Shown in pieces: positions 4,485-63,747 of a DNA stretch of 64,000 nucleotides. A program made the translations under genes and the position numbers. The notes beneath the pieces were generated by a model. It did no database searches, was not told where the DNA came from, and saw only the letters and a list, made by a program, of their open reading frames with translations. Where the stretch lies: contig CAWHEJ010000009.1 of NCBI GenBank assembly GCA_963828305.1, positions 16,984-80,983 of the forward strand, in the 5' to 3' direction. Every line of letters starts with the position of its first letter. Position 1 is the stretch's first letter. The DNA is from an uncultured delta proteobacterium. Its GTDB lineage: Bacteria > Desulfobacterota > Syntrophia > Syntrophales > UBA2192.

Positions 4485-6714
4485 TCAAAGCTGCGCACTC
4501 TTCAGCCTGAGCGAGTTTCCGATAACGGACACCGAGCTGAAGCTCATGGCGGCGGCCGCGATGATGGGGCTGAGCAAAAGGCCGGAGACGGGGTAAAGAA
4601 CCCCGGCTGCAATGGGAACGCCCAGCGCATTGTAAACAAATGCGAAGAAGAGGTTCTGCTTGATGTTGCGCATCGTCGCCCTGCTCAACTTCCTCGCCCG
4701 CACGATCCCCCGCAGATCGCCTTTCACCAGGGTCACTCCCGCGCTTTTCATCGCCACATCGGTGCCTGTTCCCATGGCAATGCCCACGTGAGCTTGCGCC
4801 AGTGCCGGGGCGTCATTGATGCCGTCTCCTGCCATGGCCACAATCCTTCCCTCGCCTTGCAGCCGTTTAACCATCGCCGCCTTCTGGTCCGGCAGAACCT
4901 CGGCTATCACTTCGTCGATGCCGAGCTTTTTCCCGACGGCTTCAGCGGTCGTCCTGCTGTCTCCCGTGATCATAACGACCCGGATCCCTTCCCGATGGAG
5001 ATTATCGATCGCCTCGGCCGTCGTTGATTTGATCGGATCTGCCACGGCAAGGAGCCCTGCAATGTTCCCGTCCGCGGCGACAAACATGGCAGTCTGAGCC
5101 TCCTTGCGCATGGACTCCGCCTTGTCAGGAAAATCGCCCGGCGCAATTCCGAGTTCTTCCATGAGCCTGCGGTTTCCGAGGGCGAGCTTCCGGCCCTCGA
5201 TCATACCCGTAACCCCGCGCCCGGTCAGCGACTCAAAGGACTCTACCTTGGTCGGCAAGATACCCTTTTTTTTCGCACCGGCGACGATCGCTTCGGCCAG
5301 GGGATGCTCGCTTCCCACCTCAAGGCTTGCAGCGAGGTGAAGCAGCGTCTTCTCATCGAACTGCGCCGCAGGGACCACGTTGACCAGCTTCGGCTTTCCC
5401 TCCGTGAGCGTACCGGTTTTATCCGTGACAAGCGTATCGACAGCCTTCATCACCTCGATCGCCTCGGCATTCTTGAAGAGCACGCCTCCCGTTGCCCCCT
5501 TGCCCATGGCCACCATGATCGACATCGGAGTTGCCAGGCCAAGGGCGCAGGGGCAGGCGATGATCAGCACCGCAACCGCATTCACAAGTGCGTAGGCTAT
5601 ACGGGGCTCCGGCCCGATCCAGGCCCAGACCGCAAAGGTGAGAACCGCGATACCGACTATGGTCTGGACAAAGTATCCTGCAACGACATCCACCAGTTTC
5701 TGGATCGGCGCGCGGCTTCTCTGAGCCTCTGCAACCATGTGGACGATCTGCGCCAAAAGGGTCTCGGCTCCAACCTTCTCCGCTTTCATAATCAATGTGC
5801 CTTTACCGTTCACGGTGGCGCCGATGACCCGGTCGCCAACCTGCTTCGACACGGGAATGGGTTCCCCCGTGATCATGGATTCATCCACCGCGCTTGATCC
5901 CTCGGTCACCGCGCCATCGACGGGCACCTTTTCGCCGGGCCTGATCCTCAGGAGATCTCCTGCCTTGATCTGGTCCATCGGGACGTCCTCTTCGCTGCCA
6001 TCCCTTATCCTTCGGGCTGTTTTCGGGGCAAGTCCGAGCAGGGCCTTTATGGCAGCACCGGTTCGCGACCGTGCTCTCAATTCAAGCACCTGGCCGAGCA
6101 GCACGAGGGTGACAATGACCGCCGCCGCCTCAAAATACAATCCCACTTCACCGCTTTCACCACGGAACGACTTGGGGAAGAGGCCAGGGAACAATGCAGC
6201 CACAATGCTGTATAGGTACGCAAGGCCGACACCGAGACCGATCAGGGTGAACATATTGGGGTTCCAGGTGACTACCGACTGCCAGCCCCTGACAAAGAAG
6301 GGCCAGGCTCCCCAGAGAACGACCGGTGTGGCTAGAATAAGCTCCAGCCATTTCAGAAACTCAGGGGAGAGGAGACGATCGATGAACGAGAGCCCCGGAA
6401 TATGGTGACGCATGGCAAATAATGAACAAGGGGACCGTCAGCACGGCGCTGACCCGGAATCGTCGTGTCATGTCGATGAGCTCGGGATTTTCCTCCTCTT
6501 CTGCCGCTATTGTTTTCGGCTCGAGCGCCATCCCGCAGATCGGACAGCTGCCGGGGGCATCCCGAACAATTTCCGGATGCATCGGGCAGGTCCACTCCGT
6601 TTTGGTAACGGTGACAGAAGGAGCAAGGGGTTCGAGAGCCATTCCGCATTTCGGACAGGCTCCGGGTTCAGCCTCTCTGATTTCAGGGTGCATGGGACAG
6701 GTGTACATTTCCAT
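4485..6714 (-). CDS. copA: Copper-translocating P1B-type ATPase, split by one frameshift near 6417-6419
   Basis: Two TCPMHPE..CPxCGM metal-binding domains (6361-6714 frame), then TGE, CPC, DKTGTLT, HP, GDGIND (4485-6413 frame). Removing one base of a 3-nt run fuses them. Confidence 0.9.
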
Positions 6715-38816: not shown

Positions 38817-39125
38817 ATGGCTATGGGGAAAGAGGATAAGCATCGTCATTTTACGCGTGAGTTCAAGGTGAATGCGGTCCAACTGGTCACTGAGAAGGGG
38901 ATGCCGGTGGGCAAAGTCGCTCAGGAGCTGGACATCCATCCCAATTTGCTTCATCTGTGGAGAAGGAGGTTGCGGGAAGAGGGAGATAAGGCCTTTGTCG
39001 GCAGGGGCCGAGTCAAGCCGGAGAACGCAGAGGTCAGGCAGCTGCGAAAGGCCTTGAAAAAGATGAAGGAAGAGAGGGACATTTTAAAAAAAGCTTTGGC
39101 CGCATTCTCCAAACAAAGCAGATGA
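38817..39125 (+). CDS. IS3 OrfA
   Basis: FTREFK..AV HTH and ERDILKKA. Confidence 0.92.
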   Translation: MAMGKEDKHRHFTREFKVNAVQLVTEKGMPVGKVAQELDIHPNLLHLWRRRLREEGDKAFVGRGRVKPENAEVRQLRKALKKMKEERDILKKALAAFSKQSR

Positions 39126-39979
39126 AGTATGGGTTTATTGAAGAGCACAGAGAGATGTACAGGATAGGAAGCATGTGTGCAGTACTCAAGACATCCAGAA
39201 GCGGCTATTATGCCTGGCGCAATCGTCAGCCGAGCAGACGACGGATAGACAATCAGGAACTGCTGGGGCATATACGGCAGATCCACACCCGAAGCAGAAA
39301 GCTTTATGGGAGTCCGCGGATCACCGTGGAGCTCAATGAACAGGGGTTCAAATGCGGCAAGAACCGGGTTGCCAGGATCATGAAGGACCACTCCATATGT
39401 GCCGAAGTGAAAAAGAGGAGATTCCGGCGGACTACCGATTCGCGGCATGATTACGCCCTGGCTGCAAACTTGCTGATTGACCAGGGACAGACAGAGGGGG
39501 TATGGGCATCCGATATTACGTTTGTCTCCACTTCGGAGGGGTGGCTCTATGTGGCAGCAGTGATGAATGTGAAAAGCAGAAGGGTCATTGGGCTGTCCAT
39601 GAGTGATACGCTCTCTCAGGAGCTGGCTTCTGCTGCACTCAGAGATGCAGCGGGCAGGCAAAGCCCTCCTGAAGGGTTGATCCACCATTCTGATCGGGGC
39701 CGGCAGTACGCAAGCTATGCCTACCAGGAGCTTCTGAGAGAACACGGCATTACCCCGAGCATGAGCAGAAGTGGCAATTGCTATGATAATGCCTATGTGG
39801 AATCGTTTTGGGGTACGCTCAAGACAGAATTGGTTTATGGTGAGCGGTACCGTTCAAGGCTTGAGGCCAGGCTCAGTATTTTTGAGTACGTGGAAGTGTT
39901 TTATAATCGTCAGCGAAGGCATTCGTCATTAGGGTACAGGAGCCCAGAACAATATGAAAAGCTCCTTCGTGAAACTTAA
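39122..39979 (+). CDS. IS3 OrfB (DDE transposase)
   Basis: YGSPR, WASDIT, HHSDRG.QY, GNCYDNA.VES. Confidence 0.95.
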   Translation: MKYGFIEEHREMYRIGSMCAVLKTSRSGYYAWRNRQPSRRRIDNQELLGHIRQIHTRSRKLYGSPRITVELNEQGFKCGKNRVARIMKDHSICAEVKKRRFRRTTDSRHDYALAANLLIDQGQTEGVWASDITFVSTSEGWLYVAAVMNVKSRRVIGLSMSDTLSQELASAALRDAAGRQSPPEGLIHHSDRGRQYASYAYQELLREHGITPSMSRSGNCYDNAYVESFWGTLKTELVYGERYRSRLEARLSIFEYVEVFYNRQRRHSSLGYRSPEQYEKLLRET

Positions 39980-47179: not shown

Positions 47180-48187
47180 ATGTCGGAATCTCAGTTTTAC
47201 CATATCACTCGGGAGGGAAAACTCATTCTCTTAACGACCATGGCTGAGGCTCTCGCCGCAGCAAAGATAAGAGGGTTTGTCTGGCTGGATTACTCCCAGC
47301 CGACAAAGGAGGAACTGTCATTTCTCATCGATCCCCTTGGACTCCATCCACTTTCTATCGAGGACTGTGTCGACGAAAATCAGATTCCCAAAATCGATGA
47401 TTATCCTCGATATACCTTCATCGTCTTCAATGCCTTTAACTACTGTCAGGGAGTGCTTTCGATCGATGAGGTGGATATGTTTATTGGCGCGGACTTTCTG
47501 ATTACCATCAACAGCAGTGGCTCAGAGAATCGGTAGCTTTTGAGGAGTATTGAACGCAGTGCGGAACTCGATCCCGAAAGCGTTCGACAAGGACCTGCTT
47601 TCGTTCTGCATGTCATCCTGGACCATATCGTCGATCAAAAACTTGTTGCGGTCGAAGCACTCGAGGATGAGTTGGACAAAGCTGAGGAGGTGATCCTTTC
47701 TGATCTGGCGAATTTCAATCCCGCTACTCTGCTCAACCTGCGCAGGAATCTGTTTGCGCTCCGAAAGAGCCTTTTCCACGAGAGGGAGATCCTCGTGAAG
47801 ATATGCCGTAAGGATTGCCCTTTCATCCCGGAAAAAGCCCTCTTCCTTTATCGAGACATTTACGATCATCTCGCCATATTCTTCGAATTCACCGAGACCT
47901 CACGTGACACCGCCACCAGCCTCATGGAGATGTACCTGACCATGTTAAACAACCAGATGGCCAATACTGCCAATCAGACGAACATGACGGTCAGGCGCTT
48001 AACCTTAATCACTACGATCTTCATGCCGCTCACGCTCTTGGCCGTGATTGGCGGCATGTCGGAGTGGTCCATGATGACCGGGCCGGGAAATTGGAGAATC
48101 TCTTATCCGGTCTTTCTGCTGGCGATGTTCATCATCGGCATTGTCAATTACTATCTATTGAAACGGTTGGAGAAAAAAGAACGATAG
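47180..48187 (+). pseudogene. corA: CorA-family Mg/Co transporter interrupted by an in-frame TAG at 47534-47536
   Basis: WLD..P, LHPLSIED, PKID before the stop; RDIYDH, IFMPLT, GGMSEW in the same frame after it. Confidence 0.85.
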
Positions 48188-48342
48188 ACAGATCAACCGG
48201 CAATCAGGCGGCAATAGGTCGACCGGCTTGCAGGTGACGAGGGGCATAGCGCCTTGGCAGAGAGGTGCTCATACTATCTATCCGTAATCCTCAATTGTGA
48301 CAGCTACCCCCAAGTGAAAGCGTTATTTTCAACAGAAATAAT

Positions 48343-48537
48343 AAACCCCTCTTCCGAGGGGTCTGGGGACGGCCGAAATACTGGCTTTCAACATTGGCAA
48401 AATTGTAAGTATATGATATAATTAAATATTTTTGGTGGAGGCGGCGGGAGTCGAACCCTACCTGTAAAATCCTATCCATATACAATCATTACATATTTGA
48501 CGATGTATCTCCCCTTGGGGACGGTCCGGGGACGGTC
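48343..48537. repeat. Complete attP-like junction between tandem elements (arm + 26-bp core + arm)
   Basis: 48343-48458 nearly identical to 55926-56042; 48440-48537 similar to 38546-38643; core tggtggaggcggcgggagtcgaaccc at 48433-48458. Confidence 0.9.
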
Positions 48538-49169
48538 GTCTTTCTAACAAAATACTGACAATCACTATCCGTGCTCAGAACAGAATTTAGGAACTGTCTG
48601 CGCTATCGACTCCTTCCTGCTTAAAATTAGACTCTGGTAAAAGATAGAAGATTACATTCGTTAATCGCCAGACATGAATGAGGCAGAGACAATCGATGCT
48701 GCCTCACCTGCTTCCGGCAAAGAACTCATCATAAACAGCATGAATTTGACAAGCGGCAGCGTTGCTTATATCAAGATCAGCTGCCATACGATGCAGCCTT
48801 GCTGCCATAAACCTACTTCCAACATCTCCTGATTCCTCCAAATCCGGCAATTCCAAAGTCAAAAAGCAGTAAGATCATGGGTTCCATTACCTGGACTATG
48901 CCTGCGGCATGAATCACCGTGTGATGTATTTGCATGCAATAAGCCGACTCAACAACTCCCCTATCCGATGAACCAAATTCTTATAGGAATCTCAGGATAA
49001 ACGAACAACGAAATCTGCTATGGCCGGATGTGCCGACTCCAAATAAGAAAGTACAATTCCTAAGAACATTTTGGCACCATATCGTACAGGTAGGAGTTCG
49101 TCATTTGTATGACTTGTGAAGTATAGGTATCTATACGGATAAAGAAGAAGAGAACTGGAGAGAAGCGAG

Positions 49170-49826
49170 ATGTCTACCATACGGGTTTTGCTTGCCGATG
49201 ACCAAAAGATCATCCGGGACGGACTCAAGACATTAATCGAAAAAGAGGCCGGCATGGAGGTGATCGCCGAGGCGGAAAACGGCCGCGAGACAGTCCGGCT
49301 AGCCCATGAACTTCGTCCCAACGTAGTCATCATAGACGTGACCATGCCGGACATGAACGGGATTGACGCAACCCGGATGATCATGGAAGAAACCCCAGGG
49401 GTCCGGGTCATCGCCCTTTCCATGCACTCCGACCAGAGTTACGTCCTGGGTATGCTCGAGGCAGGGGCGTCTGGCTACCTCCTCAAGGCTTGCGCCTTCG
49501 AGGAATTGGCCACAGCCATCCGAAATGTGGCGGAGGGAAACATGTACCTCAGCCCGAGGATCGCCGAGGTGGTGGTCAAGGGGTATCTCGGCAAGGGGCC
49601 CGGAACCTTCCAAGCATTGGGATGCGCACTCACACCCCGCGAGCGTGAGATCATCCAGCTTCTGGCCGAGGGGATGGCAACCAAGGAGATTGCCGTTCAC
49701 CTCAAGATAGCCATAAAAACCGTCGAGACACACCGTCGAAACACAATGGTGAAGCTTAACATGCGAGGCATTGCCGAGTTGACGAAATATGCCGTCCGGG
49801 AGGGATTGGTGAGCATCGAGGGGTAG
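49170..49826 (+). CDS. NarL/LuxR-family response regulator
   Basis: Receiver domain plus LTPRE.EI...KTVETHR HTH. Confidence 0.95.
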   Translation: MSTIRVLLADDQKIIRDGLKTLIEKEAGMEVIAEAENGRETVRLAHELRPNVVIIDVTMPDMNGIDATRMIMEETPGVRVIALSMHSDQSYVLGMLEAGASGYLLKACAFEELATAIRNVAEGNMYLSPRIAEVVVKGYLGKGPGTFQALGCALTPREREIIQLLAEGMATKEIAVHLKIAIKTVETHRRNTMVKLNMRGIAELTKYAVREGLVSIEG

Positions 49827-49902
49827 TAGGGAGGCTCACGACGCACGAAGCCGGTTAATGTCCTCTTCTCCTACATTTCTATTTGAATGAGGAAAGGGAA
49901 GG

Positions 49903-50511
49903 ATGAAGGCTATGAATAAGAAAGTCATAATATTCATGCTCATTTGGCTTTTCATCGTGGGTTCAGTTTATGCCCAGTTGCCAATTCCGCCTCCGGTTGT
50001 CAAACCATTTGCGGACAGCCGAGATTGGATGCTAGTCGAAACTGTTGAATATTCTATTGGGAATTCGGGCGTCACGATTATCGTCCCGAAGGGCTTTGTC
50101 ACGGATTTCGCTAGTATTCCGCAACCTCTGTGGTCGTTTGGTTTGTCACCATATGGCCGCTTCAGCAAAGCAGCAATTGTTCATGATTATCTCTACTGGA
50201 AACAAGACTGTACACGTGAGCAGGCCGACAACCTGTTGCTTATCGCCATGAAGGAGAGCGGTGTAAGCAGGTCACAACAAAGTGAAATCTATGTCGGCGT
50301 TCGCGCCGGCGGCGAGACCGCATGGGAGTCAAACAGAAAAGATCGTGCTGCAGGACTTATCAAGATTATTCCAGATGATCGTCTGAATTTCCCTTATGAA
50401 ATCAATTGGCGTGATTATAGAAAACAATTGTTCGATCTTGGTGTGAAAGAACCTCAGTCGACTGAACCGTCGGCATATTGTTCTTTCGGTAACTCGACAG
50501 ATGTACCGTAA
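49903..50511 (+). CDS. DUF1353-family exported protein
   Basis: Signal peptide; VPKGFVTDFASIP, AAIVHDYLY, VRAGG. Confidence 0.85.
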   Translation: MKAMNKKVIIFMLIWLFIVGSVYAQLPIPPPVVKPFADSRDWMLVETVEYSIGNSGVTIIVPKGFVTDFASIPQPLWSFGLSPYGRFSKAAIVHDYLYWKQDCTREQADNLLLIAMKESGVSRSQQSEIYVGVRAGGETAWESNRKDRAAGLIKIIPDDRLNFPYEINWRDYRKQLFDLGVKEPQSTEPSAYCSFGNSTDVP

Positions 50512-50802
50512 TCAAAGGCATGGATGATAGCCCGTACTCCCCTGAACTCGCTTACTCTGCCTGTTGACTTCCTTCCGCTCTAAGGCCCCCGCACTCGTTC
50601 ACTCATCCATTTACTGAGGATGAAATCATATTTTTCGAATGCACAATTGCGCATCTCCCCGATAGAATTAAGCGTCTTAATATTTAAGATTAATTACGGT
50701 TGCAATCGTTGCATACTGAATAGAGTAGTATTGGCACAGAACACAAGCACTGTTCGTTTGCTGACAACAGGCGGCGTTACAGACGAAATAGGAGGTGACA
50801 AT

Positions 50803-51126
50803 ATGCCTGAAAAAGCAGCCCCCCCCAAATGGGGTCCCATCTTCGATCCTGCTCCCTGGCCAGGTGGCAACTGGCCGCCGATCTGGCAGAACCCGCACTG
50901 GCCGCCCGTGGTGGACCCGATTCCATGGCCATGGAAACGTGTACCTTTCCCCCACGGAGACCCGATCCCCTTCCCTGACAAGTTCTGGGATAAGGTGCGG
51001 ATTGAGGACCTGATTGCTTTGCGGCTGGCAAACCTGGAGGCCCAGCACGAGGTATTCAGGGCGCAACTCGAAGCCGAAAAAACCCTTCTCGAAAAACAAA
51101 GACAGATTCTTTCCAGGTACAAGTAA
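50803..51126 (+). CDS. Pro/Trp-rich repeat protein (107 aa), candidate radical-SAM substrate/precursor
   Basis: GGAGGT RBS at 50791; three PxxDPxP[WF]P motifs and a C-terminal helical segment. Confidence 0.8.
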   Translation: MPEKAAPPKWGPIFDPAPWPGGNWPPIWQNPHWPPVVDPIPWPWKRVPFPHGDPIPFPDKFWDKVRIEDLIALRLANLEAQHEVFRAQLEAEKTLLEKQRQILSRYK

Positions 51127-51221
51127 ATGTAGTCCGTGCATATCCTCTTGCACAAAAGCACACTTTGCCGCCTGTTGTCCCAACTTTTTTACTTGTCCAA
51201 AGTCCCCCGTGGAGGTACGTC

Positions 51222-52814
51222 ATGTCCGCACGCAATGTGGCTTTCGTGGCCTATCAAGATCAGCCAAACCTCGGTATTGGTTACCTCGCGAGTGTCCTCG
51301 TCAATGATGGTTTCCAAGTGGAGGTACTCGATTACCGGAAAGGTTTCGAGTCCATCCTGGAGCGCATCCGGGAGCTTGACCCGCTTTTCATCGGGCTCTC
51401 CGTCATCTTCCAGCACTATACACCGGACTTTGCCAATCTGGTGGCCTACCTGCGCGACAACGGAATTAAGCACCCCATCTGCGCCGGGGGACATTACCCA
51501 AGCCTAGAAAATAAAGCCTGTCTCAAGGAGATGCCCGGACTGGACTTCATCGTCCGCTTCGAGGGCGAGCAGACCCTGCTCGAGGTAGCCCGACAATTGC
51601 GCAACGGACGGAATTGGCGCAGCGTCCACGGCATTGCATACCTGAATGATGAGGCCGTTGTTGACATGCCGTTGCGGCCCTTGACACCGGATCTGGACAG
51701 CCTTCCGTTTCCGAAGCGCTGGAATTTCGACTTGCACTGCCTGGGAATCCGCGCCACAAGCATCCTGGCCAGCCGTGGGTGCCCCCGCAATTGCTCGTTT
51801 TGCAGCATCCGGATGTTTTACTCGATCCCGCCGGGCCCCGTGCGTCGATCGCGAACCCCGGAGAACGTGATCGAAGAGATGCGGCAGCTCTACCGGGATC
51901 AGGGTGTTCGCATCTTTCTCTTCCAGGACGATGATTTCTCCCTGATGAGCAAGCGTGATCGCGACTGGACGTGGCACTTTCTCGACTGTCTGAACCAGTC
52001 TGAAATGAAGGGGGCCATTTCGTGGAAAATCAGTTGTCGCTCCGACGAGGTCGAACCGAAAATATTCGCCGCTATGCGCGACGCGGGACTGATGTTTACC
52101 TATCTGGGAATTGAATCGGGCCACGAGGCAGGCCTGCGCGTCCTCAATAAGCATCTCACCGTGGCACAGAACGTACAGGCCGTTAAGACTCTAAAAAGCT
52201 TGGGGATTAGCTTTGATTTCGGGTTCATGCTGTTCGATCCGTCCAGCACCATCGATCGGGTATTGAAGAACATTCATTTCGTAAAACGGATTTGCGGCGA
52301 CGGCAGTGCGCCGGTGTCCTTCGCAAAAACCCTGCCCTACGCGGGAACGGACCTTGAACGTCAGATGAGCAAGGCGGGCCGACTTCGTGGCGATGTCGCC
52401 ACTCCTGATTACAGCTTCTTGGACCACCAAACCGAAGAGTGGTTCGGCTATCTTTGCGAGGTCTTCTACCCGTGGGTCTATGGCGGCCAGTCGCTTCAGG
52501 CCCAGCTCAGATGGGCTGCCTTCGAATTGGATGTGCTTGACCGGTTCTATAACAAAGCACCTGGCCTGGAAGAGCACAGAAAGAGGGTCCGCTTTCTCAC
52601 CCACTGGTACAATGAAATCTACTGCAGGATTGTCGAGGATTCCTCCGGGTATTTCCGCACGCCGCACGCTGAAAACTCCCATGCCCTGGCAGCTATTCGT
52701 TCAGCCTCAGAGCAACAGCGGAACTGGATTGAAGACCAGCTCGCTCTGCAACGCCGGGAGTTCTTCACCTCCGCCGAATTTCCTCTGGAACTTGTACTGG
52801 GCAACGTCGCGTAA
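51222..52814 (+). CDS. Cobalamin-binding radical SAM enzyme (class B methyltransferase-like)
   Basis: GGAGGT RBS; N-terminal B12 domain (LGIGYLASVL, GGHYPS, FEGE); SRGCPRNCSFC; DDDF; GIESG. Confidence 0.92.
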   Translation: MSARNVAFVAYQDQPNLGIGYLASVLVNDGFQVEVLDYRKGFESILERIRELDPLFIGLSVIFQHYTPDFANLVAYLRDNGIKHPICAGGHYPSLENKACLKEMPGLDFIVRFEGEQTLLEVARQLRNGRNWRSVHGIAYLNDEAVVDMPLRPLTPDLDSLPFPKRWNFDLHCLGIRATSILASRGCPRNCSFCSIRMFYSIPPGPVRRSRTPENVIEEMRQLYRDQGVRIFLFQDDDFSLMSKRDRDWTWHFLDCLNQSEMKGAISWKISCRSDEVEPKIFAAMRDAGLMFTYLGIESGHEAGLRVLNKHLTVAQNVQAVKTLKSLGISFDFGFMLFDPSSTIDRVLKNIHFVKRICGDGSAPVSFAKTLPYAGTDLERQMSKAGRLRGDVATPDYSFLDHQTEEWFGYLCEVFYPWVYGGQSLQAQLRWAAFELDVLDRFYNKAPGLEEHRKRVRFLTHWYNEIYCRIVEDSSGYFRTPHAENSHALAAIRSASEQQRNWIEDQLALQRREFFTSAEFPLELVLGNVA

Positions 52815-52989: not shown

Positions 52990-53030
52990 AATCACCTCAT
53001 CCGGCATTCAGGGTACCGGATGAGGTGATT
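52990..53030. terminator. 15-bp inverted repeat downstream of the radical SAM gene
   Basis: AATCACCTCATCCGG...CCGGATGAGGTGATT. Confidence 0.65.
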
Positions 53031-53080: not shown

Positions 53081-53275
53081 TCACGCAATTCTTTTAGGTG
53101 GCGGTTCCTCGAAGTACCGCCTGACTGATGCCATGATCGAAAGCTCCAAGTCTCCCATTTTCCCTCTGTCGTCCCTGAAATAGCGCTGCATGGTATCTAC
53201 AATGCTTGATTCCATGCTCGACCGTTTATATGTATCGCTCTCCGTTGTTTTACCGGGCGTCAGCATCTCTTTCAT
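53081..53275 (-). CDS. Small hypothetical protein (64 aa)
   Basis: AGAGGT RBS; C-terminus RYFEEPPPK also occurs as a DNA relic at ~35854. Confidence 0.5.
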   Translation of the reverse strand: MKEMLTPGKTTESDTYKRSSMESSIVDTMQRYFRDDRGKMGDLELSIMASVRRYFEEPPPKRIA

Positions 53276-53649
53276 ATGCTTACCTCTACTGGATTCGTTT
53301 TGAAGAGATTGAGCACGTTCGTTCTTAGTGTTTGCTTCCTGAAGTTGCTTGACGATGAGCGGTCATCATGATCGCTTCTTTGTACCTAATATCCTGCTGA
53401 TCGGCATGAAGGGTTTCATTTGCGTATTCCGCGGACGATCCAGAATATAGCGCCGATAATGATGACAACAAACAGAATGTAAAGTAGTAAATCCACGGAT
53501 GGCTCCTTATCGAATCGTATTGATGAAGTTTCGATATCGAACCCTGAGGACATCGAGTGCATGGTCATTGTCGGGGAGTTCAAACAACACACTGAAACCC
53601 GCACGAAGCGCTCGCACTTCACTGGCCAGAAACTTTCCGCGAAGGCATC

Positions 53650-54245
53650 TCGGTCGATCCCGATGATTTGCGGCCCCGGGGTTCCCGCTCGCCGCAGTTG
53701 CACCTCAAGGTACTGCTTCTCCAGCGCCTTGATCGTCTTCCAGTCCAGATGGGTCTCCCGGGCCACATCCCGGATTGTCGAAACACGGCACCGTCGTCCC
53801 ACCCAGAAGGAAAAGCGCTTCGTGTAGAACGGGTTGTCGGCCAGCCACTTCAGGCTCTCCTGCTTCACTTTCCCGCAACTCCGGCAAAATACGCGTCGGA
53901 TCTCCACATCCAGCCAGACGCGACGGTCGCCGCAGGAAAGATCCCGAACCCGACGCACCTTGCGGTCGTAAAACGTCCGGCATGTCTGTCCGCAGGCCCC
54001 GCAAATCGTTTTTTTCCCCGGCGGCGCAGCTTGATGACCAGGGCCTTCGGATCACCGAAGATCCCCGATACCCCGGGCTCCGGTGTAAACTCCGGAAACC
54101 GATACGCGTCCCACAATCGTTTCGTTTTTCGCATCTGGAGTTCATATCATATTTTGTCGGCGTCAAAAAGAGTGCAGACCCTTGCAGGTCAAGATTTTGC
54201 AGCTTAAAAACCCGTTAGTTTACCCACTCGATTGGGAGAAGATCC
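53650..54245 (-). mobile_element. Truncated ISL3-family element
   Basis: End GGATCTTCTCCC; short ORF ending at an A7 slippery run (54009-54015), then zinc finger/RRVRDL..., TKRF, and IGID where it breaks off. Confidence 0.85.
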
Positions 54246-54777
54246 CTATTTTTTAAAACATGATTTGCAAGCCTTCTGCAATCGGGCCCAGGATGAATGA
54301 CATGATCCAAATGCCTTAACGCGGTTTCATAAAAAGGATGAGAAATGAGCGAGCACCCGAACAGGAACACGATTTTCTTTACGCTGAAACCGGCTGCTCA
54401 GTTTCGCCTCGATTACATCGTCTGGGCCCTCAGGATGCGCAATGGATAAAAAAGATAACATCCTGATTTTATGGAACAATCATTTACGTGTTGCCAATAT
54501 CCGTTTTTTCGTTTCCATGCCTTGATCCCCTCGTAAAACCTCCTCTGCATTACCGATTGAAAGTCTGAGGCGCTGCACCAAGGAAGGCCGTTCAGACGGC
54601 AGAAACGGCTTCAGCAGCTTGAAGATTACGGATAGTAAGGTGGTTATTTTGAGGTCTACAAAAGGGCTCTTCAGGTGGCGTCGGGAGGGCTCATTTGGAT
54701 CAGCTCTGCGTATAGCTTGAAGTTGTTGAAATCGGATTTCGGCTGATTGTGTATATTGCAATCGATAATCGTTAGAA

Positions 54778-54815
54778 CGTAAGAAGGCAGAGCCAATCGA
54801 CTCTGCCTTCTTACG
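54778..54815. terminator. 15-bp inverted repeat
   Basis: CGTAAGAAGGCAGAG...CTCTGCCTTCTTACG downstream of the receiver gene. Confidence 0.65.
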
Positions 54816-54841
54816 CTCATCGTCACGAATGGGCCTGCCTA

Positions 54842-55246
54842 TTACCTTTTTACTGCTAAGGGCTTCCTTGAGCGTGCTACCCTGTGGATGGTTTTTGACA
54901 TTTCTTCGAAATTATCACCCTTCACAATGTATCCCAGTGCACCGGCACGCATCATTTCCGCATAGAAGATGGTATCGGAATATACGGAAAGAGCCAGAAT
55001 CTTCATCCCGGGCCTATTGGCAACAATCCGTCGCGTTGCTTCGATTCCGTCCATGACTGGCATCTTGATGTCCATGATGATGACATCGGGTTGAAGGTCA
55101 TCGGCTAATGTGATCGCTCTCTGACCGTTTTCCGCCTCACCGACCACCTCCATGTCGGCCTCACGGTTGATCAGCATCTTGAGCCCGTCGCGGCACAACT
55201 CGTGATCGTCAACAATCAGGATGCTTGTCTTCGCAATATCTCCCAT
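54842..55246 (-). CDS. NarL-type receiver domain without HTH
   Basis: ILIVDDH, MDIKMP, GALGYIVK; ends after the receiver. Confidence 0.88.
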   Translation of the reverse strand: MGDIAKTSILIVDDHELCRDGLKMLINREADMEVVGEAENGQRAITLADDLQPDVIIMDIKMPVMDGIEATRRIVANRPGMKILALSVYSDTIFYAEMMRAGALGYIVKGDNFEEMSKTIHRVARSRKPLAVKR

Positions 55247-55492
55247 GATTAATTATCAAATGCCAGACAAGAATACTATGTAGTCAATACCTTAGGTTTC
55301 TAATGATTTGGAGTATCTGGATTCCGACCCCCGCCGTCTATTTTGTCTGCTCAATAATCAACAGATGTTCCAGCATTCCGTCACATTTTGCCAGATTTAG
55401 CTTGACTTGCATCCCCCTGATAGTATTGAGTTGTGCAAATTTATCAGGCAATCATCAGTTATTCGGCACCATCGACTGGTAAGGGGGCTTAT

Positions 55493-55792
55493 ATGTCAAG
55501 GGAAGTCGATATAAAGCTTGATATGATAAGGGTTTATTTCAAACATCGCATTGCCGATTGTTCATCCGAAGACTCTTATGATGATAAACTGGGATTGCAT
55601 ATTTTCCAGCTCCACTGCAAAGGAGATCCCACCAGCGTTCACGTATCGCGTGAGTTCATCGATGCGCATTCACCAGCCGAAATTCTCACGACTCTTATGC
55701 GGCTCCAACCGGAGAATTATATCCGAGGGATAAATACAGGCCACATCAAAATTACAATTGATGGCGTTAAGGTGGAGTCAAATAAGATTTAG
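55493..55792 (+). CDS. Hypothetical protein
   Basis: AAGGGGG RBS, open frame of 99 aa. Confidence 0.55.
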   Translation: MSREVDIKLDMIRVYFKHRIADCSSEDSYDDKLGLHIFQLHCKGDPTSVHVSREFIDAHSPAEILTTLMRLQPENYIRGINTGHIKITIDGVKVESNKI

Positions 55793-55946: not shown

Positions 55947-56016
55947 TGGGGACGGCCGTAAATACTGGCTTTCAAAATTGGCAAAACTGTAAGTACATGA
56001 TATAATTAAACATTTT

Positions 56017-56373
56017 TGGTGGAGGCGGCGGGAGTCGAACCCGCGTCCGGAAACCTTCAGCTGCAGCTTCTACACGCTTAGTCCCCGATTTAAGGTTCGC
56101 CTCGGAGGCCTCCCGGGGACGGGATCCCTCGTCGGCTATCCTGTGTTTGGTTTCGCCTCACCCGCCACAGGAGATCAGGGTCGGCTATCCTGGCTGATTT
56201 TACGCCCTGTTCGAGCCGTCAGGAAAACCCGGCAGGACGAGGCTACTTAAGCAGCCTGTGCGTAAACGTAGTCGTTGGCGTTTACAGTTTTTCTACCTGT
56301 TTAAGGAGCCCGGTAGAAACCTCCGCGTGCGACTGTCAGCATCAATTATCCCCGTCGAAACCGTGGCGCCCCC
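56017..56373 (-). ncRNA. ssrA: tmRNA; encoded tag ANDYVYAQAA* (56247-56279)
   Basis: 5' GGGGGCGCCACGGTTTCGACGGGG; 3' GGGTTCGACTCCCGCCGCCTCCACCA; tag frame present; smpB nearby. Confidence 0.96.
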
Positions 56374-56406
56374 ACTTGTACATCGGCAAGGAACAATTTC
56401 AGCTTT

Positions 56407-56435
56407 AATCTAGCTTGCCTGCAGCGGGAAGTCAA
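56407..56435 (-). promoter_or_regulatory. Sigma-70 promoter of ssrA
   Basis: TTGACT-N17-TAGATT. Confidence 0.7.
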
Positions 56436-56448
56436 GCAGGGATACAGG

Positions 56449-56757
56449 CTACCGGTCGGGGATCTCCATCTCGAGGATGGCCGAGCTGAGGGACTTGCCG
56501 TGAGGGTCCAGCGCCAGCGACCGGGTGACCCCTCCGCCGAGGGCCTCCTGGAGGACAAAGTTGAGCGCTTCGATGTTCGGCATCTCGTATCGGGCGACCC
56601 CCCCTCTGACAAGCCCCGCGAAATGGGCCTTCACGCGCTCCACCGTGACATGGCGCACCAGGTGCGGGTAATCCTCGGCGCGAAAAGCGATGACCGAGAT
56701 GTTGGCCGTGTTCCCTTTGTCGCCGGCCCGGGCGTGGGCGATGTCCCTCAGTTTCAT
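56449..56757 (-). CDS. AtuA-related small ferredoxin-fold protein
   Basis: AHARAGDKG, LGGGVTRSL.LDPHGK. Confidence 0.85.
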   Translation of the reverse strand: MKLRDIAHARAGDKGNTANISVIAFRAEDYPHLVRHVTVERVKAHFAGLVRGGVARYEMPNIEALNFVLQEALGGGVTRSLALDPHGKSLSSAILEMEIPDR

Positions 56758-56758
56758 G

Positions 56759-58099
56759 TCAGATCTCCTCGATATGGAGGGTTGTCTTGATGAGGGAGCG
56801 CGGGATCAGCGCGGAGAGCATGGCGATGACCTCCCGGGCGGCTTTCGCCGCTCCTCCCCCCCCGGCAGGCCCGTTGGTGTAGAGTGTCTCCACCTCGTTG
56901 CCGATCCGGAGGGCTTCGTCCAGGGTGCGGGTCCTGCCCGCCACCCGCAGGCGAACTTCGTAAGGCTCCCCCCTGTCGCGGGGGATATTTTGCCCGTGAA
57001 GCGAATCGACACCGATGAGGTCCGTGCGGATCTCGTCATGACGGATACCCGCGAGTTTCAGGCGCTCGAGGACAATGTCCCTCGCGAGTTTCGCCCGGGC
57101 GACTGCCCCGGCTCCGCCGTAGCTGATCTGCCCCTCCCCGATGTAGCCGTCCAGGCAGCTTATGCAGACCTTGAGGGAGTCTGTCCGAGGGCATCCCCTG
57201 CCACCACGGACCGTTACGGCATCTTCTCCTGACGCTTCAATCGTGACCCCCGTGAAGTCCGCCACCACGTCCGGCGTGATGTACTGCGAGGGGTCGTGGA
57301 TTTCGTAGAGGAGTTGCTCCTTGCAGGTGGCCGGAGTCACGCGGCCGCCGGAGCCCTTCACCTTGGTGATGACGGCCACGCCTTCTTCCGACACCTCGGC
57401 GAAGGGAAAACCGAGCCGGGCCAGATCAGGCACCTCCTTGAGGCCCGGGTCGGCAAAATACCCCCCCGTCACCTGGCCTGCGCACTCCAGGAGATGGCCC
57501 ACAACGGTGCCCTGCCCCAGACGATTCCAGTCGTCCGAGCGCCAGCCGAATTCGAACATCAGCGGCGCGAGAAACAGGGAGGGATCGGCAACACGGCCCG
57601 TGATGACGACATCGGCGCCCTTCTGCAGGGCCTCGCTGAGGGGCTCTGCGCCCAGGTAGGCATTGGCCGAGACGAGCCGGTCCTTGAGCCCCGAGACCCG
57701 CTCTCCGGTTTCGACGATGATGGGATTTTCCCGCAGGATCAGATCGAAGACGTCGTCACCGGTAACGGCCGCCAGCTTCAATCCCCTGATACCGAGCTGC
57801 ATTGCCTTCCTGCGGGTGGCCTCGAGGGCGCCCAGGGGGTTTGCCGCGCCCATGTTGGTGATGATTTTGATTCCCCGCTCCCGGCAGGCCGGAAGGACAG
57901 CTTCCATTCGTCTCCCGAGAAGCTCGTCGAAACCTTTCGCGGGATCGCGCCGGCGGGCCTGCAGGGCCAGCGCGATGGTCCGCTCCGCCAGGCACTCGAA
58001 GACGAGGTAACGGATCTCCCCCTTTTCGGCCAGCTCCATGGCCGGCTCGATCCGGTCCCCGGCGTAACCCGCCCCGCAGCCGATTCGTATTGTTTTCAT
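56759..58099 (-). CDS. Acyclic terpene utilization AtuA-family protein (DUF1446)
   Basis: GAGYAGDR, ECLAERT, TGRVADPS, GHLLECAGQ, EQLLYEIHDP. Confidence 0.9.
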   Translation of the reverse strand: MKTIRIGCGAGYAGDRIEPAMELAEKGEIRYLVFECLAERTIALALQARRRDPAKGFDELLGRRMEAVLPACRERGIKIITNMGAANPLGALEATRRKAMQLGIRGLKLAAVTGDDVFDLILRENPIIVETGERVSGLKDRLVSANAYLGAEPLSEALQKGADVVITGRVADPSLFLAPLMFEFGWRSDDWNRLGQGTVVGHLLECAGQVTGGYFADPGLKEVPDLARLGFPFAEVSEEGVAVITKVKGSGGRVTPATCKEQLLYEIHDPSQYITPDVVADFTGVTIEASGEDAVTVRGGRGCPRTDSLKVCISCLDGYIGEGQISYGGAGAVARAKLARDIVLERLKLAGIRHDEIRTDLIGVDSLHGQNIPRDRGEPYEVRLRVAGRTRTLDEALRIGNEVETLYTNGPAGGGGAAKAAREVIAMLSALIPRSLIKTTLHIEEI

Positions 58100-58176
58100 C
58101 CCTGCGCCTCAAAAAAAGGCCGGAGGCGATGGCCTCCAGCTTCCTGTTCCTTGACGAATCCCGGGCCTCCGGCCGA

Positions 58177-58647
58177 TCAGCGGCTTCTTCCCCGGATGGC
58201 CCGTTCCATCTCCCGCTTGTCCGTCCGTTTCTTCAGGTCTTGGCGCCGGTCATGAGTCTTCTTGCCGCGGCCCACGCCGAGCAGGATCTTCACCTTGCCG
58301 CTTTTGAAGTAGGCCTTGAGCGGGATCACCGACTGCCCCCTTTCCTGGGTCCTGCTGTAGAGTTTCCGGATCTCCTGCTTGTGCAGGAGGAGTTTGCGGA
58401 CCCGCAGGGGGTCGTGGTTCATGATGTTGCCGAAGGTATAGGGGCTGATGTTCATTTCGTAGAGGTAGACCTCGCCGTTTTTCACGCGGGCGAAGCTGTC
58501 CGTCAGGTTCCCCTTCCCTTCCCGGAGGGCCTTGACCTCGGTGCCCACCAGCGCGATCCCCGCCTCGTAGGTTTCCTCGATCTCGAAGTTCAGCCCGGCC
58601 GTCTTGTTCCGGCAGATCGGTTTTTCGCCTGATTCCTTCTTAGCCAC
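58177..58647 (-). CDS. smpB: SsrA-binding protein
   Basis: [30 protein letters not shown]. Confidence 0.96.
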
Positions 58648-59413
58648 TTTGTTTCCCTCGAGGCATGTAATCCTTCTTCACGTTCTTCATGGCACGAAAG
58701 AGGTTGTCCCGGATGAGATGGTTGTCTTTCTCCAGCATGTTGAGCAGCTCCTTGACGTAGCGCCTCCGGGAATTCCCGCTCGTGGGGCACCGGTTTGAGG
58801 CGACGGGAAACTGCCGCTCCCGGGCGAACTTCTTGACCAGCTCCTCGCGGACATAGGCCAGGGGCCGGATGATGTGAAGCGCCCCCCCGAAGATCTGCTG
58901 CTTCGGCATCATGGTGCTGATCTCGCGGCTGTAGAACATGTTCAGCAGCAGCGTCTCGATCATGTCGTCGCGGTGATGGGCCAGGGCGATCTTGTTGCAG
59001 CCCCGCTCACCGGCGATCTCGAAGATGCGTTTCCGTCTCAGCCTCGAACACAGAAAGCAGGGGTTCTTCTTGTTGTAATCGCTGTGAGACAGGGGACCGA
59101 TGTCCGTCCGGTCGATCACGCAGTCGACTTGCGTTTCCGTGAGGTAGGATTCAAGCCGGGCGCTGTCCTCGCCGCTCCCGTCGAATCCCAGATCGATATG
59201 CACCGCCAGGATGGAGTACTCCCCGGGGGTTGAGTACTTCGGGGTCCGCAGCAGATCGAGGAGGGCCATGCTGTCCGTCCCTCCCGAGACCCCAACGAGG
59301 ATGCGGTCGCCCGGCTCGATCATGCCGTAGTCCCTTGAGGCGGTCTCGAACCACTTGTTGAGGTGATTGTGAAGCCTGCTCCGTTTCTCCCCGTTCGGTT
59401 GCCTGTCGTTCAC
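58640..59413 (-). CDS. ttcA: TtcA-family tRNA thiolase (PP-loop)
   Basis: [24 protein letters not shown]. Confidence 0.88.
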
Positions 59414-59570
59414 CGGATCGTTCCTTGCCCTGAGTCCGCATTTCCCAATAATTTATACCACATCGACAGGGCGAATCAAACACCAATCGGATGAGTGTCG
59501 GCAGCACTTCGGCTTGCAAAATGGCGGCGGATGCGCTAATCAGGGTTTGCTGAAGAGGAAAGAGACTTGT

Positions 59571-61044
<1,474 letters not shown>

Positions 61045-61078
61045 GGCTTCAGGCATCAGGCTACAGGCTACAGGAACT

Positions 61079-61117
61079 AAAAGAGGCCGATTCAGGTTGT
61101 CTGAATCGGCCTCTTTT
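61079..61117. terminator. Bidirectional terminator between eno and plsB
   Basis: AAAAGAGGCCGATTCAG-gttgt-CTGAATCGGCCTCTTTT, flanked by 7-bp tandem repeats. Confidence 0.85.
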
Positions 61118-61158
61118 CTATTTCCCTACACGCTACGCGCTACACGCGACACGCTGGT

Positions 61159-63747
61159 TTATAAGAATCTGAATATCCTCTGCCTCAATGCTTCAATTCG
61201 CCCCTTTTTCTCCGTGAGGGAGTAGAAGGTCCTGGTCTTCGTCTCCTTCTTTTCCTTCCGCTCCATGGCCTTGAGGATCTCCTCGTCGAGGAGCGCCTTC
61301 ATGGCGTTCTGGTAATTGGAAACACTCTGGGCCTCGTTTCGGAGGATCTCGCCTTTCTTGTACATCCGGGTGCCCAGCTTCTGCACCAGCTTGAGGAACT
61401 CCTTGTCGGTGCGCATGTCCTTCTTCAGATAGGACGAGCCTCTCGTGACGACCCAGTAGGATTCGATGTAGTTCTGGATGAGACCGGCATAGGGCCGCAG
61501 ATTCGTCCGCCCTTTCCCTTTCACCTCGATCCAGGCCTCATCCCCTTTCTCCAGTCCGGAGATCATCCCCCGGTCCAAAAGGTATGCCAGGGCCTCGTGG
61601 ACCTCCTCGGCATCGCCCTTGCGGTGGTCGAAGATGAATTCGTGCCGGAAGAGCCGCTTGAAGAACTTGTAATCCTCCATGAGCGTAACGAGCGGGATTG
61701 CATCTTCGCTCTTCGAGAGGATGGAAGCCGCCACGAAGGAAAGCGGCACGAAGAAGTGCAGGATGTTGTTCTTGTAGTACTCGAGGTGAAGGCGCTTCTC
61801 CTCGTCGAGCGAAAAGACGACCTCGGCAAACTCGTCCTCCTCGCCCTCCTCGGCGCCCATCTCGGAGATGATCCCCATGGACTTGAACTGATCGAGGGCG
61901 TCCTGGATGGCGCGCTCGGGGTTGGCAAAGGTAGACGCGATGGACACACCGCGGGCGGCCAGGTAGTGAAACAGCTCGTGGATGATCTCCAGCAGGTCGT
62001 TCCGGGTCAGGCCCCGCTTGTAGTGGCACAGCAGTGCCGCCGCCACGAGGGCAAAGGGCGTCACGACGGAAACGCGGCTGATCTCGCTCACGACCTCGTA
62101 GCTCATTTTCCGGTAGAGGCTGCGGCGCTCGTCCGTATCCATGGACTCAAGCGGTTTCTCCTGAGCCTGCAGGTAGGGGCGCACGTAGATCGGCTCGCCC
62201 ACGTTCACGTAGACGCGCCCGTAGCGTTTGTCGAGAAGCTTGCGGCTCTTGATGACGGAGGTGGCCTTCTCCTTCTCCTTCGCAGCGCCTCCCAGCTCCT
62301 GCAGGTAAGATTTCTCCTCCATGACGCGGTCGTAGCCTATGAAGACGGGAATGATGGCAAGATCCTGGTGCAGGTTCATGTTCGCCTGGATGACCATGGA
62401 GAGCATCCCGTACTTCGGCATGACCATTTTTCCCGTCCTGCTCCGCCCCCCCTCGATGAAAAACTCGAGGGGATACCCGAATCCCAGCAGTGTCTTGATG
62501 TAGGTCTCCATCACCTGCCGGTAAAGGAAGTTGCCGCCAAAAGTCCTGCGAATAAAAAAAGCCCCCGCCTTGCGGAAAATATGGCCCAGCGGCCAGAACA
62601 TGAGATTCGTACCCGCCGCGACAAAGGGCAGCGGGATGTTGTGCTTGTAGAAGACGTAGGACAAAAGCAGGTAATCGATGTGGCTGCGGTGGCACGGAAT
62701 GATGAGACAGGGCATGCGCCGGGAAATTTCGCGGACCCGGGTGAGCCCCTCCCGGTCGACGACGACCCCGTCATAGACATTGTTCCAGAGCCAGCTGAGG
62801 GCCTTCTCCCAGAGCTCGATGTAAAAATCGCTGTATTCGGCGGCGATCTCTTCCAGATACCGCCTCGCCTGCTTCCGGATCGAGGGAAGGTCTTTTTTCG
62901 TCGCCGCGGCGTGTTGTTCCATGAAGCGAACGAGTTCGTCGTCCCGAAGCGCCCTGTCCATGATCTCCTCGCGGGCCTTGACGCGGGGACCCAGGGCCGC
63001 ACGCGTCTCGCGGTCGATCCGTCCGATGAGATCGCCTCTCAGCGCCCCGGCAAGCTCCAACGGGTTGCCGCCGGCCGCCTCTTTGAGCAGGAGGGAAAGG
63101 TCGACCGCCTCCGCTGCGACGACGGAAGTGCGGTTTTTGTAACGGACGAAGGCGATGAGCCGCCTCAGCCAGCCGGGATGTTCCTGGTCGCCGAAGAAGA
63201 TTTCCACCAGGGGGCGTTCCTTTTTCTCCCGGCGCGGACCGTAGGCGACGGCCACGGGGACGATGCTGACGGGAACGTCGAGGGCCCTCTGGGCGCTCAG
63301 GAGCTGTGCGAGAGGGTCCGCCTCATCATCGCGCTCCGAGCCGCGAAGATAGATCACGGAGCTCACACGGAGGCGGGTGAGGCGGTCGAGGTCCCCCGTG
63401 GACCCCGGATCGGCAGGACGGCTTCCCAGCAGGGAGCGGACGAGCTTCGTCGCCTTTCTCCAAAGCGGCGATTTCGTTCCGTGAAAATAAAGGGGTTGGG
63501 GGATGTTTTTCCGCAGGCCGAGTTCGTGAAGGATGAGGCCGTTGAGGCGGCTGCGGTATTTCAGCGCGTAAACGACAACCCCTTTTTCGGAGAGCCCATT
63601 CAGGGCCTGCTCGCACTCGGGGGCCAGTTCCACTTTGGAGAGATATCTCGAGAAAAACCAGTAAAACGGAGGGGTGATTTTCTCCCCGGCGTTCCCGCCG
63701 GGAGGCTCCTCGACGCCGGCAGGCATACTGTGGGGGTCCTGACTCAT
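61159..63747 (-). CDS. plsB: Glycerol-3-phosphate acyltransferase
   Basis: HRSHIDY, GAFFIRR, FFIEGGRSRTGK. Confidence 0.9.
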   Translation of the reverse strand: MSQDPHSMPAGVEEPPGGNAGEKITPPFYWFFSRYLSKVELAPECEQALNGLSEKGVVVYALKYRSRLNGLILHELGLRKNIPQPLYFHGTKSPLWRKATKLVRSLLGSRPADPGSTGDLDRLTRLRVSSVIYLRGSERDDEADPLAQLLSAQRALDVPVSIVPVAVAYGPRREKKERPLVEIFFGDQEHPGWLRRLIAFVRYKNRTSVVAAEAVDLSLLLKEAAGGNPLELAGALRGDLIGRIDRETRAALGPRVKAREEIMDRALRDDELVRFMEQHAAATKKDLPSIRKQARRYLEEIAAEYSDFYIELWEKALSWLWNNVYDGVVVDREGLTRVREISRRMPCLIIPCHRSHIDYLLLSYVFYKHNIPLPFVAAGTNLMFWPLGHIFRKAGAFFIRRTFGGNFLYRQVMETYIKTLLGFGYPLEFFIEGGRSRTGKMVMPKYGMLSMVIQANMNLHQDLAIIPVFIGYDRVMEEKSYLQELGGAAKEKEKATSVIKSRKLLDKRYGRVYVNVGEPIYVRPYLQAQEKPLESMDTDERRSLYRKMSYEVVSEISRVSVVTPFALVAAALLCHYKRGLTRNDLLEIIHELFHYLAARGVSIASTFANPERAIQDALDQFKSMGIISEMGAEEGEEDEFAEVVFSLDEEKRLHLEYYKNNILHFFVPLSFVAASILSKSEDAIPLVTLMEDYKFFKRLFRHEFIFDHRKGDAEEVHEALAYLLDRGMISGLEKGDEAWIEVKGKGRTNLRPYAGLIQNYIESYWVVTRGSSYLKKDMRTDKEFLKLVQKLGTRMYKKGEILRNEAQSVSNYQNAMKALLDEEILKAMERKEKKETKTRTFYSLTEKKGRIEALRQRIFRFL

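Follow-up and report, generated by a model that had tools for sequence, protein, structure and literature searches.

Some of the hardest reactions in biology are carried out by enzymes that combine cobalamin (vitamin B12) with radical S-adenosylmethionine (SAM) chemistry and, to our knowledge, only a handful of these enzymes have a known protein or peptide substrate. What, then, might such an enzyme act on when the gene directly upstream of its own encodes a small protein rich in proline and tryptophan? This question is raised by DNA from an uncultured delta proteobacterium of the Syntrophales (GenBank assembly GCA_963828305.1, contig CAWHEJ010000009.1), of which positions 16,984 to 80,983 of the forward strand were analysed; this whole stretch of 64,000 nucleotides is referred to here as the window, and all coordinates are those of the window unless another locus is named. 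On its plus strand, a gene for a protein of 107 residues (P0001; 50803..51126) is followed, after a gap of 95 nt, by a gene for a B12-binding radical SAM enzyme of 530 residues (P0002; 51222..52814). The explanation that we favour, with moderate confidence, is that the two proteins are substrate and enzyme, and that an Asp-Pro site in the small protein would be modified, probably by C-methylation.

A conserved two-gene cassette

The two genes make up a cassette that is self-contained and conserved, and it is found in scattered anaerobic microbes. Loci were collected in two independent ways, via the small protein and via the enzyme. The small protein led to eleven loci, one in a genome (L001, a Syntrophales metagenome-assembled genome) and ten in metagenomes, and in nine of the eleven tblastn found the enzyme directly downstream. 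The exceptions are a locus that ends inside the small open reading frame (ORF) at the end of its contig (L010) and a degenerate locus that has no enzyme (L011); the latter holds a frame-broken remnant of the small gene (positions 6001-6213 of that locus; 53% identity over residues 3-88), no radical SAM gene lies within 6 kb of it, and the cassette seems to have decayed there. The enzyme-anchored search does not presuppose a small ORF, so the linkage that it reveals is unbiased in that respect. Among 400 other genomes sampled from the phylum it matched 2 (E<=1e-90), and among 338 other genomes of the class it matched 3 (E<=1e-70). At all five enzyme-anchored loci a small ORF with an Asp-Pro and a helix lies directly upstream on the same strand, the distance being 18-143 nt to the extent that the starts of the ORFs are identifiable. 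The initial annotation, which had described this region from its sequence, would have been undermined if homologues of the enzyme lacked such a neighbour, and the reverse was found.

The five loci also show how far the partners have diverged. One of them, with an enzyme 86% identical to that of the window, has a partner with three copies of the motif, as in the window. The other four, with enzymes 41-46% identical, have partners of 65-89 residues with a single motif ahead of the helix (...ADPIPDWF..., ...WDPIPWW..., ...GPIFDPKF... and ...WAVDPAV...). In the reverse test, a profile of the small protein run over the same 400 phylum genomes matched only the 2 enzyme-positive genomes; an extra match (E 8e-5) falls within a 566-residue ATPase-like ORF and was judged false. 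As a single control, no comparable ORF lies upstream of a B12 radical SAM paralogue (29% identical) encoded by the window's own genome. The recurrence of equal contig sizes (7186, 2805 and 2850) between the database entries for the small protein and those for the enzyme is a hint, not a proof, of shared contigs.

No further neighbouring gene is common to the loci, whether their enzymes are 41-46% or about 68-89% identical to that of the window, and no protease, transporter, immunity gene or third enzyme is conserved in the inspected flanks. Since the flanks differ at every locus, the unit consists of the two genes alone. A Pfam scan confined to the flanks in the window (47180-50511 and 53081-55792) gave other families or none. 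Just upstream of the pair, a gene on the plus strand (49903-50511) encodes a DUF1353 protein with a signal-like hydrophobic stretch at its N-terminus; it was considered as a component of the system and ruled out, being absent beside the cassette at every other inspected locus.

Could the small protein be the precursor of a classical RiPP (a peptide made by the ribosome and modified post-translationally), with an unlinked protease cutting the modified Pro/Trp-rich core from a helical follower and the bioactive peptide then being exported? A short precursor adjoining the enzyme is one criterion for such systems, and this is the arrangement at the loci described above (5/5 enzyme-anchored and 9/11 small-protein-anchored). 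The order of precursor and then radical SAM gene, with a strong ribosome-binding site on each, fits this idea, as does a core of variable copy number. RNA-library contigs from three runs cover the small gene alone, which would be compatible with an excess of precursor mRNA, and clavusporin biosynthesis has both follower peptides and B12 radical SAM methylation (PMC10849626). However, genes for a protease, a transporter or immunity are not conserved in any inspected flank, the protein shows no evident signal or cleavage motif, and its N-terminal part begins at residue 1, without a leader. A classical RiPP is accordingly the least probable of the alternatives discussed here. The lack of an adjacent protease or exporter had been remarked on in the initial annotation, and it extends to the other inspected loci. 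Because neither travels with the pair, the small protein, once modified, would most likely stay whole.

The small protein and its Asp-Pro site

Homologues and purifying selection make the small ORF a genuine gene, beyond chance. Its translation is accompanied by an AGGAGG Shine-Dalgarno sequence (50790..50795, plus strand), read 7 nt 5' of the ATG, and contigs of close relatives occur in RNA libraries. The ratio of non-synonymous to synonymous substitution rates (dN/dS) for the whole gene is 0.02-0.16 against five relatives with distinct sequences, only distinct sequences being counted (L005 is a duplicate of L004). Broken down by part, against four relatives about 80% identical, the ratio is 0.06-0.10 for the Pro/Trp-rich N-terminal part and 0.17-0.28 for the helix that follows it. 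This stronger constraint on the N-terminal part counts in favour of a substrate role.

The protein has two dissimilar parts. Residues 1-62 contain 20 Pro and 8 Trp (counted on the translation; totals for the whole protein were scripted), and residues 63-107 contain neither. An AlphaFold2 model built on a 57-row alignment consists of one helix, over residues 67-105, with a predicted local distance difference test (pLDDT) score of 93-95, and leaves residues 1-66 without regular structure (pLDDT 50-60). The helix (51001..51117, plus strand) is amphipathic, is present in every homologue aligned, and is proposed as a docking (follower) or oligomerisation element. The length, the strong ribosome-binding site, the composition, the three motifs and the Pro-free helical tail that had been reported initially are all borne out by the translation, the sequence and the model.

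The three motifs are PIFDPAPWP (residues 12-20; 50836..50862), PVVDPIPWP (residues 35-43; 50905..50931) and PHGDPIPFP (residues 50-58; 50950..50976), all on the plus strand. In the first, D15 and P16 are almost invariant in the close clade, and a GPIFDP version of this motif directly precedes the helix in one homologue (L018). In the second, DPIPWP is invariant in 18 sequences. The third contains Asp53-Pro54 (50959-50964), which are the sole invariant columns of the family.

Eighteen database homologues were found at E<=0.01, and their alignment keeps the reading frame across a 9-residue indel, with the DPIPWP and DPIPxP motifs invariant. A profile of the small protein run against 1.84 billion representatives gave 41 matches at E<=1e-3, of which two long Pro-rich proteins and one 47-residue fragment were set aside, and a word-indexed profile search gave 57 proteins. 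Across the 57 aligned sequences, only D53 and P54 (in the numbering of the window's protein) are invariant; among 37 additional homologues, 36 have DP at this anchor and the remaining one has DS. No Pfam or NCBIfam model matched any of 11 family members tested, and a look-up of the small protein in the ESM Atlas gave no usable match.

A typical member of the family has 65-90 residues and one [W/G]DP[I/V]P[W/F] motif ahead of the helix. The architecture common to the recognisable subfamilies is thus a short, variable N-terminus, then the Asp-Pro, usually embedded in [W/G]DP[I/V]P[W/F][W/P], and then an amphipathic helix of about 40 residues. The number of DP dipeptides per protein ranges from 1 to 5, a variation in motif count that resembles multi-core substrates and that counts for a substrate role. 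All of the multi-motif proteins begin with an N-terminal PPxWGPxxDPxPW, so they form a single lineage within which multiplication of the site took place; on the alignments, the triple repeat is a lineage-specific expansion and not a defining trait of the family. Conservation of a repeated DPxP[WF] motif, as initially envisaged, is therefore upheld for the Asp-Pro but fails family-wide for the repeats, for the Trp/Phe and for the second Pro: this Pro is not invariant across the family, and two subfamilies (the ...MEIADP... and ...WAVDPAV... types) do not conserve the Trp/Phe beside the Asp-Pro.

The enzyme and the chemistry it might perform

The neighbouring gene, confirmed by its ORF and by Pfam as the 530-residue cobalamin-binding radical SAM gene with a CPRNCSFC motif that had been described 95 nt downstream, is preceded by a GGAGG Shine-Dalgarno sequence (51211..51215, plus strand) within a GGAGGT that is invariant in 7/7 aligned loci. 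The B12-binding domain (PF02310) occupies residues 6-122 (51237..51587, plus strand) with E 3.8e-20 and a score of 72.4 bits against a cut-off of 32.1, as expected of the class B superfamily. The Radical_SAM domain (PF04055) occupies residues 183-336 with E 1.2e-16 and 61.8 bits against a cut-off of 29.5. The motif for the [4Fe-4S] cluster and SAM, CPRNCSFC (residues 187-194; 51780..51803, plus strand), has the Cx3Cx2C spacing, with C187, C191 and C194. In an alignment of 61 homologues with a mean column identity of 55%, these cysteines and the G89, G90 and H91 of the B12 domain are invariant. The AlphaFold2 model (pLDDT 94) ends in a four-helix domain, residues 402-517 (52425..52772, plus strand), made up of helices 402-419, 425-442, 449-478 and 486-517; these residues have no Pfam match, and the domain is a candidate docking site for the helix of the partner.

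Relatives of the enzyme are numerous: of 8000 candidates that were scored, 3450 proteins match at E<=1e-20. The best 120 of the 3450 are 43-99% identical and nearly all cover at least 89% of the query, 3 being fragments that cover about 60%. Source names among these best 120 include Omnitrophica, Methanomicrobiales, Thermoanaerobaculaceae, Chloroflexota and Bryobacteraceae, and enzymes 43-50% identical carry names from Acidobacteriota, Chloroflexota, Omnitrophica and one archaeon. Source databases often label these relatives BchE or YgiQ (many of them BchE, in JGI). BchE, the anaerobic Mg-protoporphyrin IX monomethyl ester cyclase (TIGR02026), is indeed the best NCBIfam match (E 4.9e-36, residues 13-330). 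However, the score is 124.6 bits against a cut-off of 481.35 and the C-terminal 200 residues are unmatched; the label was transferred generically and is no sign of membership. No NCBIfam cut-off was reached: the next scores are 106.6 bits for ApyD (cut-off 750) and 103.1 for HpnJ (578), and lower ones include TIGR04014, the methyl-coenzyme M reductase glutamine methylase (87.2; 360), TIGR03975, rSAM_ocin_1 (61.8; 281.85), and TIGR04428, TsrM (21.8; 500). Its domains and scores place the protein among the class B radical SAM enzymes, in a clade that is uncharacterised.

Three further searches were made with the enzyme. In a scan of IMG/VR with the enzyme alignment, none of 56 pattern matches encoded a relative. 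A tblastn search of plasmids gave a single record, 31.7% identical over residues 17-401, which is a generic class B enzyme. A PADLOC candidate model, PDC-M51A, matched at 41.5 bits and was taken as generic radical SAM similarity; the small protein matched nothing there.

How might the two proteins work together? The small protein would present an unstructured, Pro/Trp-rich segment ending in the invariant Asp-Pro, followed by the amphipathic helix of about 40 residues, and the cobalamin-dependent enzyme encoded downstream would bind it and modify it at or beside the Asp-Pro. The helix would serve as a follower that docks on the C-terminal four-helix domain. In the likeliest reaction, methylcobalamin would donate a methyl group to an unactivated carbon, either the C-beta of the Asp or one in the following Pro, and the product would be the modified small protein, kept whole. 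Since the site is present three times in the window's lineage, up to three modifications would be expected there. That the small protein is a dedicated substrate is suggested by an adjacency kept over deep divergence, by two invariant residues lying in an unstructured segment, and by the variable copy number of that segment; from this we infer the binding, the site, the chemistry and the fate of the product.

Another possibility is that the enzyme requires the small protein as an obligate partner (an adaptor, a scaffold, an activator or a regulatory subunit) and acts on a different substrate, be it another protein, a small molecule, a lipid or a tetrapyrrole. The nearest curated families (BchE, HpnJ, HpnR and PhpK) are indeed small-molecule enzymes, a long helix is suited to a structural interaction, and the lack of a linked protease or exporter and of a detectable RiPP recognition element (RRE) would be natural in such a case. 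However, a structural partner should conserve its interface helix, yet here the helix evolves faster than the rest, and the only invariant residues are an Asp-Pro within an unstructured segment. Moreover, between 1 and 5 copies of a motif would be odd in a subunit, and genes of a pathway for some other substrate are not linked to the pair. An obligate partner is thus an unlikely explanation of these data.

If the small protein is nevertheless the substrate, is methylation the reaction? Foldseek neighbours of the enzyme model are OxsB, TsrM, AprD4, MgmA, TokK and CysS, at 14-19% identity, with E 5.7e-18 to 9ccb (MgmA) and 7e-21 to TsrM; a sequence search of the PDB returned only OxsB, 9ccb (MgmA) and AprD4. 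The presence among these neighbours of MgmA and TsrM, which C-methylate proteins or peptides, counts in favour of the proposed mechanism. C-methylation of the Asp or Pro is favoured because peptide-acting class B enzymes most commonly transfer a methyl group to an sp3 carbon, a prevalence supported by PMC10849626 and PMC10635010; the latter also enumerates non-methylating reactions of class B radical SAM enzymes. The same substrate might indeed undergo a different chemistry, such as the radical crosslinking of Trp, Pro or Asp through a C-C or C-N bond, or else an epimerisation or rearrangement, with a mass shift of -2 or 0 Da and not +14 Da. Such an outcome would be in keeping with the non-methylases OxsB and AprD4 among the closest folds and with the aromatic residues that flank the Asp-Pro in most subfamilies. 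However, given the two subfamilies in which the Trp/Phe is not conserved, an aromatic crosslink could not be shared by the whole family, and the characterised peptide-acting B12 radical SAM enzymes are mostly methylases, in part on the evidence of PMC10849626. A reaction other than methylation therefore seems quite unlikely.

A comparison with known systems places the pair close to, but outside, what has been described. On sequence criteria, it resembles the known B12 radical SAM systems for peptide or protein modification and is a member of no defined family. Full-text searches of the literature outside subscription journals returned no account of a B12 radical SAM enzyme whose partner is an Asp-Pro/Trp-rich small protein, and no curated family beyond generic domains applies, in line with the initial impression that this is not a characterised class. 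The class B methylases MgmA, TsrM, ApyD and the rSAM_ocin_1 enzymes of the PoyB/PoyC type likewise have an N-terminal B12-binding domain and a CxxxCxxC radical SAM core, and here too a gene-encoded polypeptide is the presumed substrate; what differs is an identity of at most 19% to any solved structure and a partner whose small-protein family is new and has an invariant Asp-Pro. According to PMC10635010, ApyD carries an RRE and methylates the C-beta of Tyr. Unlike ApyD, the window's enzyme has no RRE or known peptide-binding domain detectable with Pfam, NCBIfam or the model (RRE-specific models were not run), its C-terminal domain being all-helical in the model, without winged-helix strands.

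The Mpc system for clavusporin is another useful comparison. As described in PMC10849626, it comprises a precursor, MpcA, with an acidic follower, a B12 radical SAM enzyme, MpcB, a DUF5825 protein, MpcC, an S9 peptidase and a transporter; Pro-containing cores are C-methylated, DUF5825 is required, and MpcB, confined to Actinobacteria, has a Cx7Cx2C motif. The likeness lies in a B12 radical SAM gene beside that of a short precursor whose candidate modified region precedes a C-terminal follower. In contrast, the motif here is Cx3Cx2C and not Cx7Cx2C, only two genes are shared among the loci, the follower would be helical and not acidic, and the hosts are Desulfobacterota and other anaerobe-rich groups.

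A further parallel is with PqqA/PqqE and MftA/MftC, whose small peptides, with one or two invariant residues, are encoded beside radical SAM enzymes and are not known to be exported as antibiotics. However, PqqE and MftC are SPASM-domain enzymes that do not bind B12, and the further processing genes of those systems have no linked counterpart here.

Several points weigh against an enzyme-substrate pair with a methylated Asp-Pro. Linkage, conservation of the family, invariance of the Asp-Pro, enzyme fold and cofactor motifs are established; the substrate relationship, the site and the chemistry are all inferred from gene context, and this context is drawn from a single phylum and from metagenome contigs. 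Typical RiPP precursors conserve the recognition segment better than the core, whereas the helix is here conserved less well than the core. The best curated-family scores go to enzymes that do not act on peptides (BchE, 124.6 bits; HpnJ, 103.1 bits), far below the cut-offs, and the nearest folds include the non-methylases OxsB and AprD4. To these must be added the RRE that was not found. Finally, homologues of the small protein are counted in dozens (41; 57), whereas those of the enzyme exceed 120 at E<=1e-140. A prediction of the complex, with enzyme and small protein supplied as alignments, gave an interaction prediction score from aligned errors (ipSAE) of 0.00 in two runs without controls, and is evidence neither way.

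Genomic setting and significance

The intergenic region contains a block, GCCGCCTGTTGTCCC (51167..51181, plus strand), followed by a T-run, that an alignment of 7 intergenic regions shows to be better conserved than its surroundings among close relatives. RNA folding revealed no stable hairpin between the genes, the folding being no better than that of shuffled sequences (z = -0.04). Metatranscriptome contigs 95-96% identical to the window span essentially the small gene alone (50768-51182, 50812-51180 and 50730-51106), those from two runs of one study ending at 51180-51182, and another contig, about 90% identical, spans 51312-51996 of the enzyme gene. These contigs are assembled from relatives (90-96% identity; 0.05-0.08 of the sampled words), possibly with some DNA carry-over, and they indicate presence in the libraries only, as opposed to transcript ends, levels or transcription of the window's copy. 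The GCCGCCTGTTGTCCC block could be a site of processing or attenuation.

Downstream of the pair, an inverted repeat (52990..53030) pairs two arms perfectly over 15 bp (52990-53004 and 53016-53030) around an 11-nt loop. The hairpin reported initially therefore exists, but a role as the terminator of the pair is not evident since the repeat begins 175 nt past the enzyme's stop codon, has no T-run on the plus strand and was not called by a terminator scan, which found nothing between the genes and nothing just past the enzyme gene. The repeat sits between the cassette and a 64-residue ORF on the minus strand (53081-53275), and it may serve this ORF or be a repeat element.

The pair lies within a stretch, at 40-56 kb, with a GC content of 45-56%, as against 57-65% in the adjoining DNA, which suggests that this stretch is an acquired island. 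The adjoining region at 56000-62000 (57-65% GC) contains housekeeping genes (AtuA-like, PP-loop and enolase). On the other side of the low-GC stretch, an ORF on the plus strand (39122-39979) encodes an IS3-type transposase with an rve integrase core and HTH_21, and a truncated ISL3-family transposase lies on the minus strand at 53416-53958, where only the N-terminal zinc-ribbon and helix-turn-helix match and the end is unrelated sequence. Inside the stretch, a gene for a CorA-type magnesium transporter is split over two ORFs on the plus strand (47180-47536 and 47540-48187, matching Pfam CorA profile positions 3-86 and 106-292) and is probably a frameshifted pseudogene; response-regulator genes and the DUF1353 gene are also present. 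The mobile element initially proposed thus survives as a low-GC island littered with insertion sequences but not as a delimited element, no boundaries having been defined.

The distribution of the cassette within the genus points in the same direction. The enzyme is present in 2 of 17 other genomes, once in an 86% form and once in a 42% form; the genome with the latter (G610; L019 and L023) encodes the 42%-identical enzyme together with a single-motif WDPIPWW partner. The occurrence of a different cassette subfamily in a congeneric genome points to independent acquisitions within one genus. Because it is so patchy (2/17 genomes, two subfamilies), the cassette appears to be an accessory, horizontally acquired module.

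What would an assignment of substrate to this enzyme mean? The pair would be a minimal system of two genes, with a soluble-looking putative substrate of 65-107 residues and a single invariant Asp-Pro as its target, and the three sites in the window's variant would ease the detection of mass shifts. An assigned substrate would also correct many annotations in a large clade of enzymes mislabelled BchE or YgiQ. If the modified residue were Asp or Pro, the class would gain a new residue specificity or a new reaction. A bolder idea, which we put forward only tentatively, is that the cassette installs a previously unknown modification on the invariant Asp, or on the next Pro, of a small coiled-coil protein that is never excised. 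If so, this would be a new kind of B12- and radical-SAM-dependent protein maturation in anaerobes, as distinct from an antibiotic pathway, and its product might, for instance, be a cofactor carried on a peptide, or a structural or regulatory protein in modified form.

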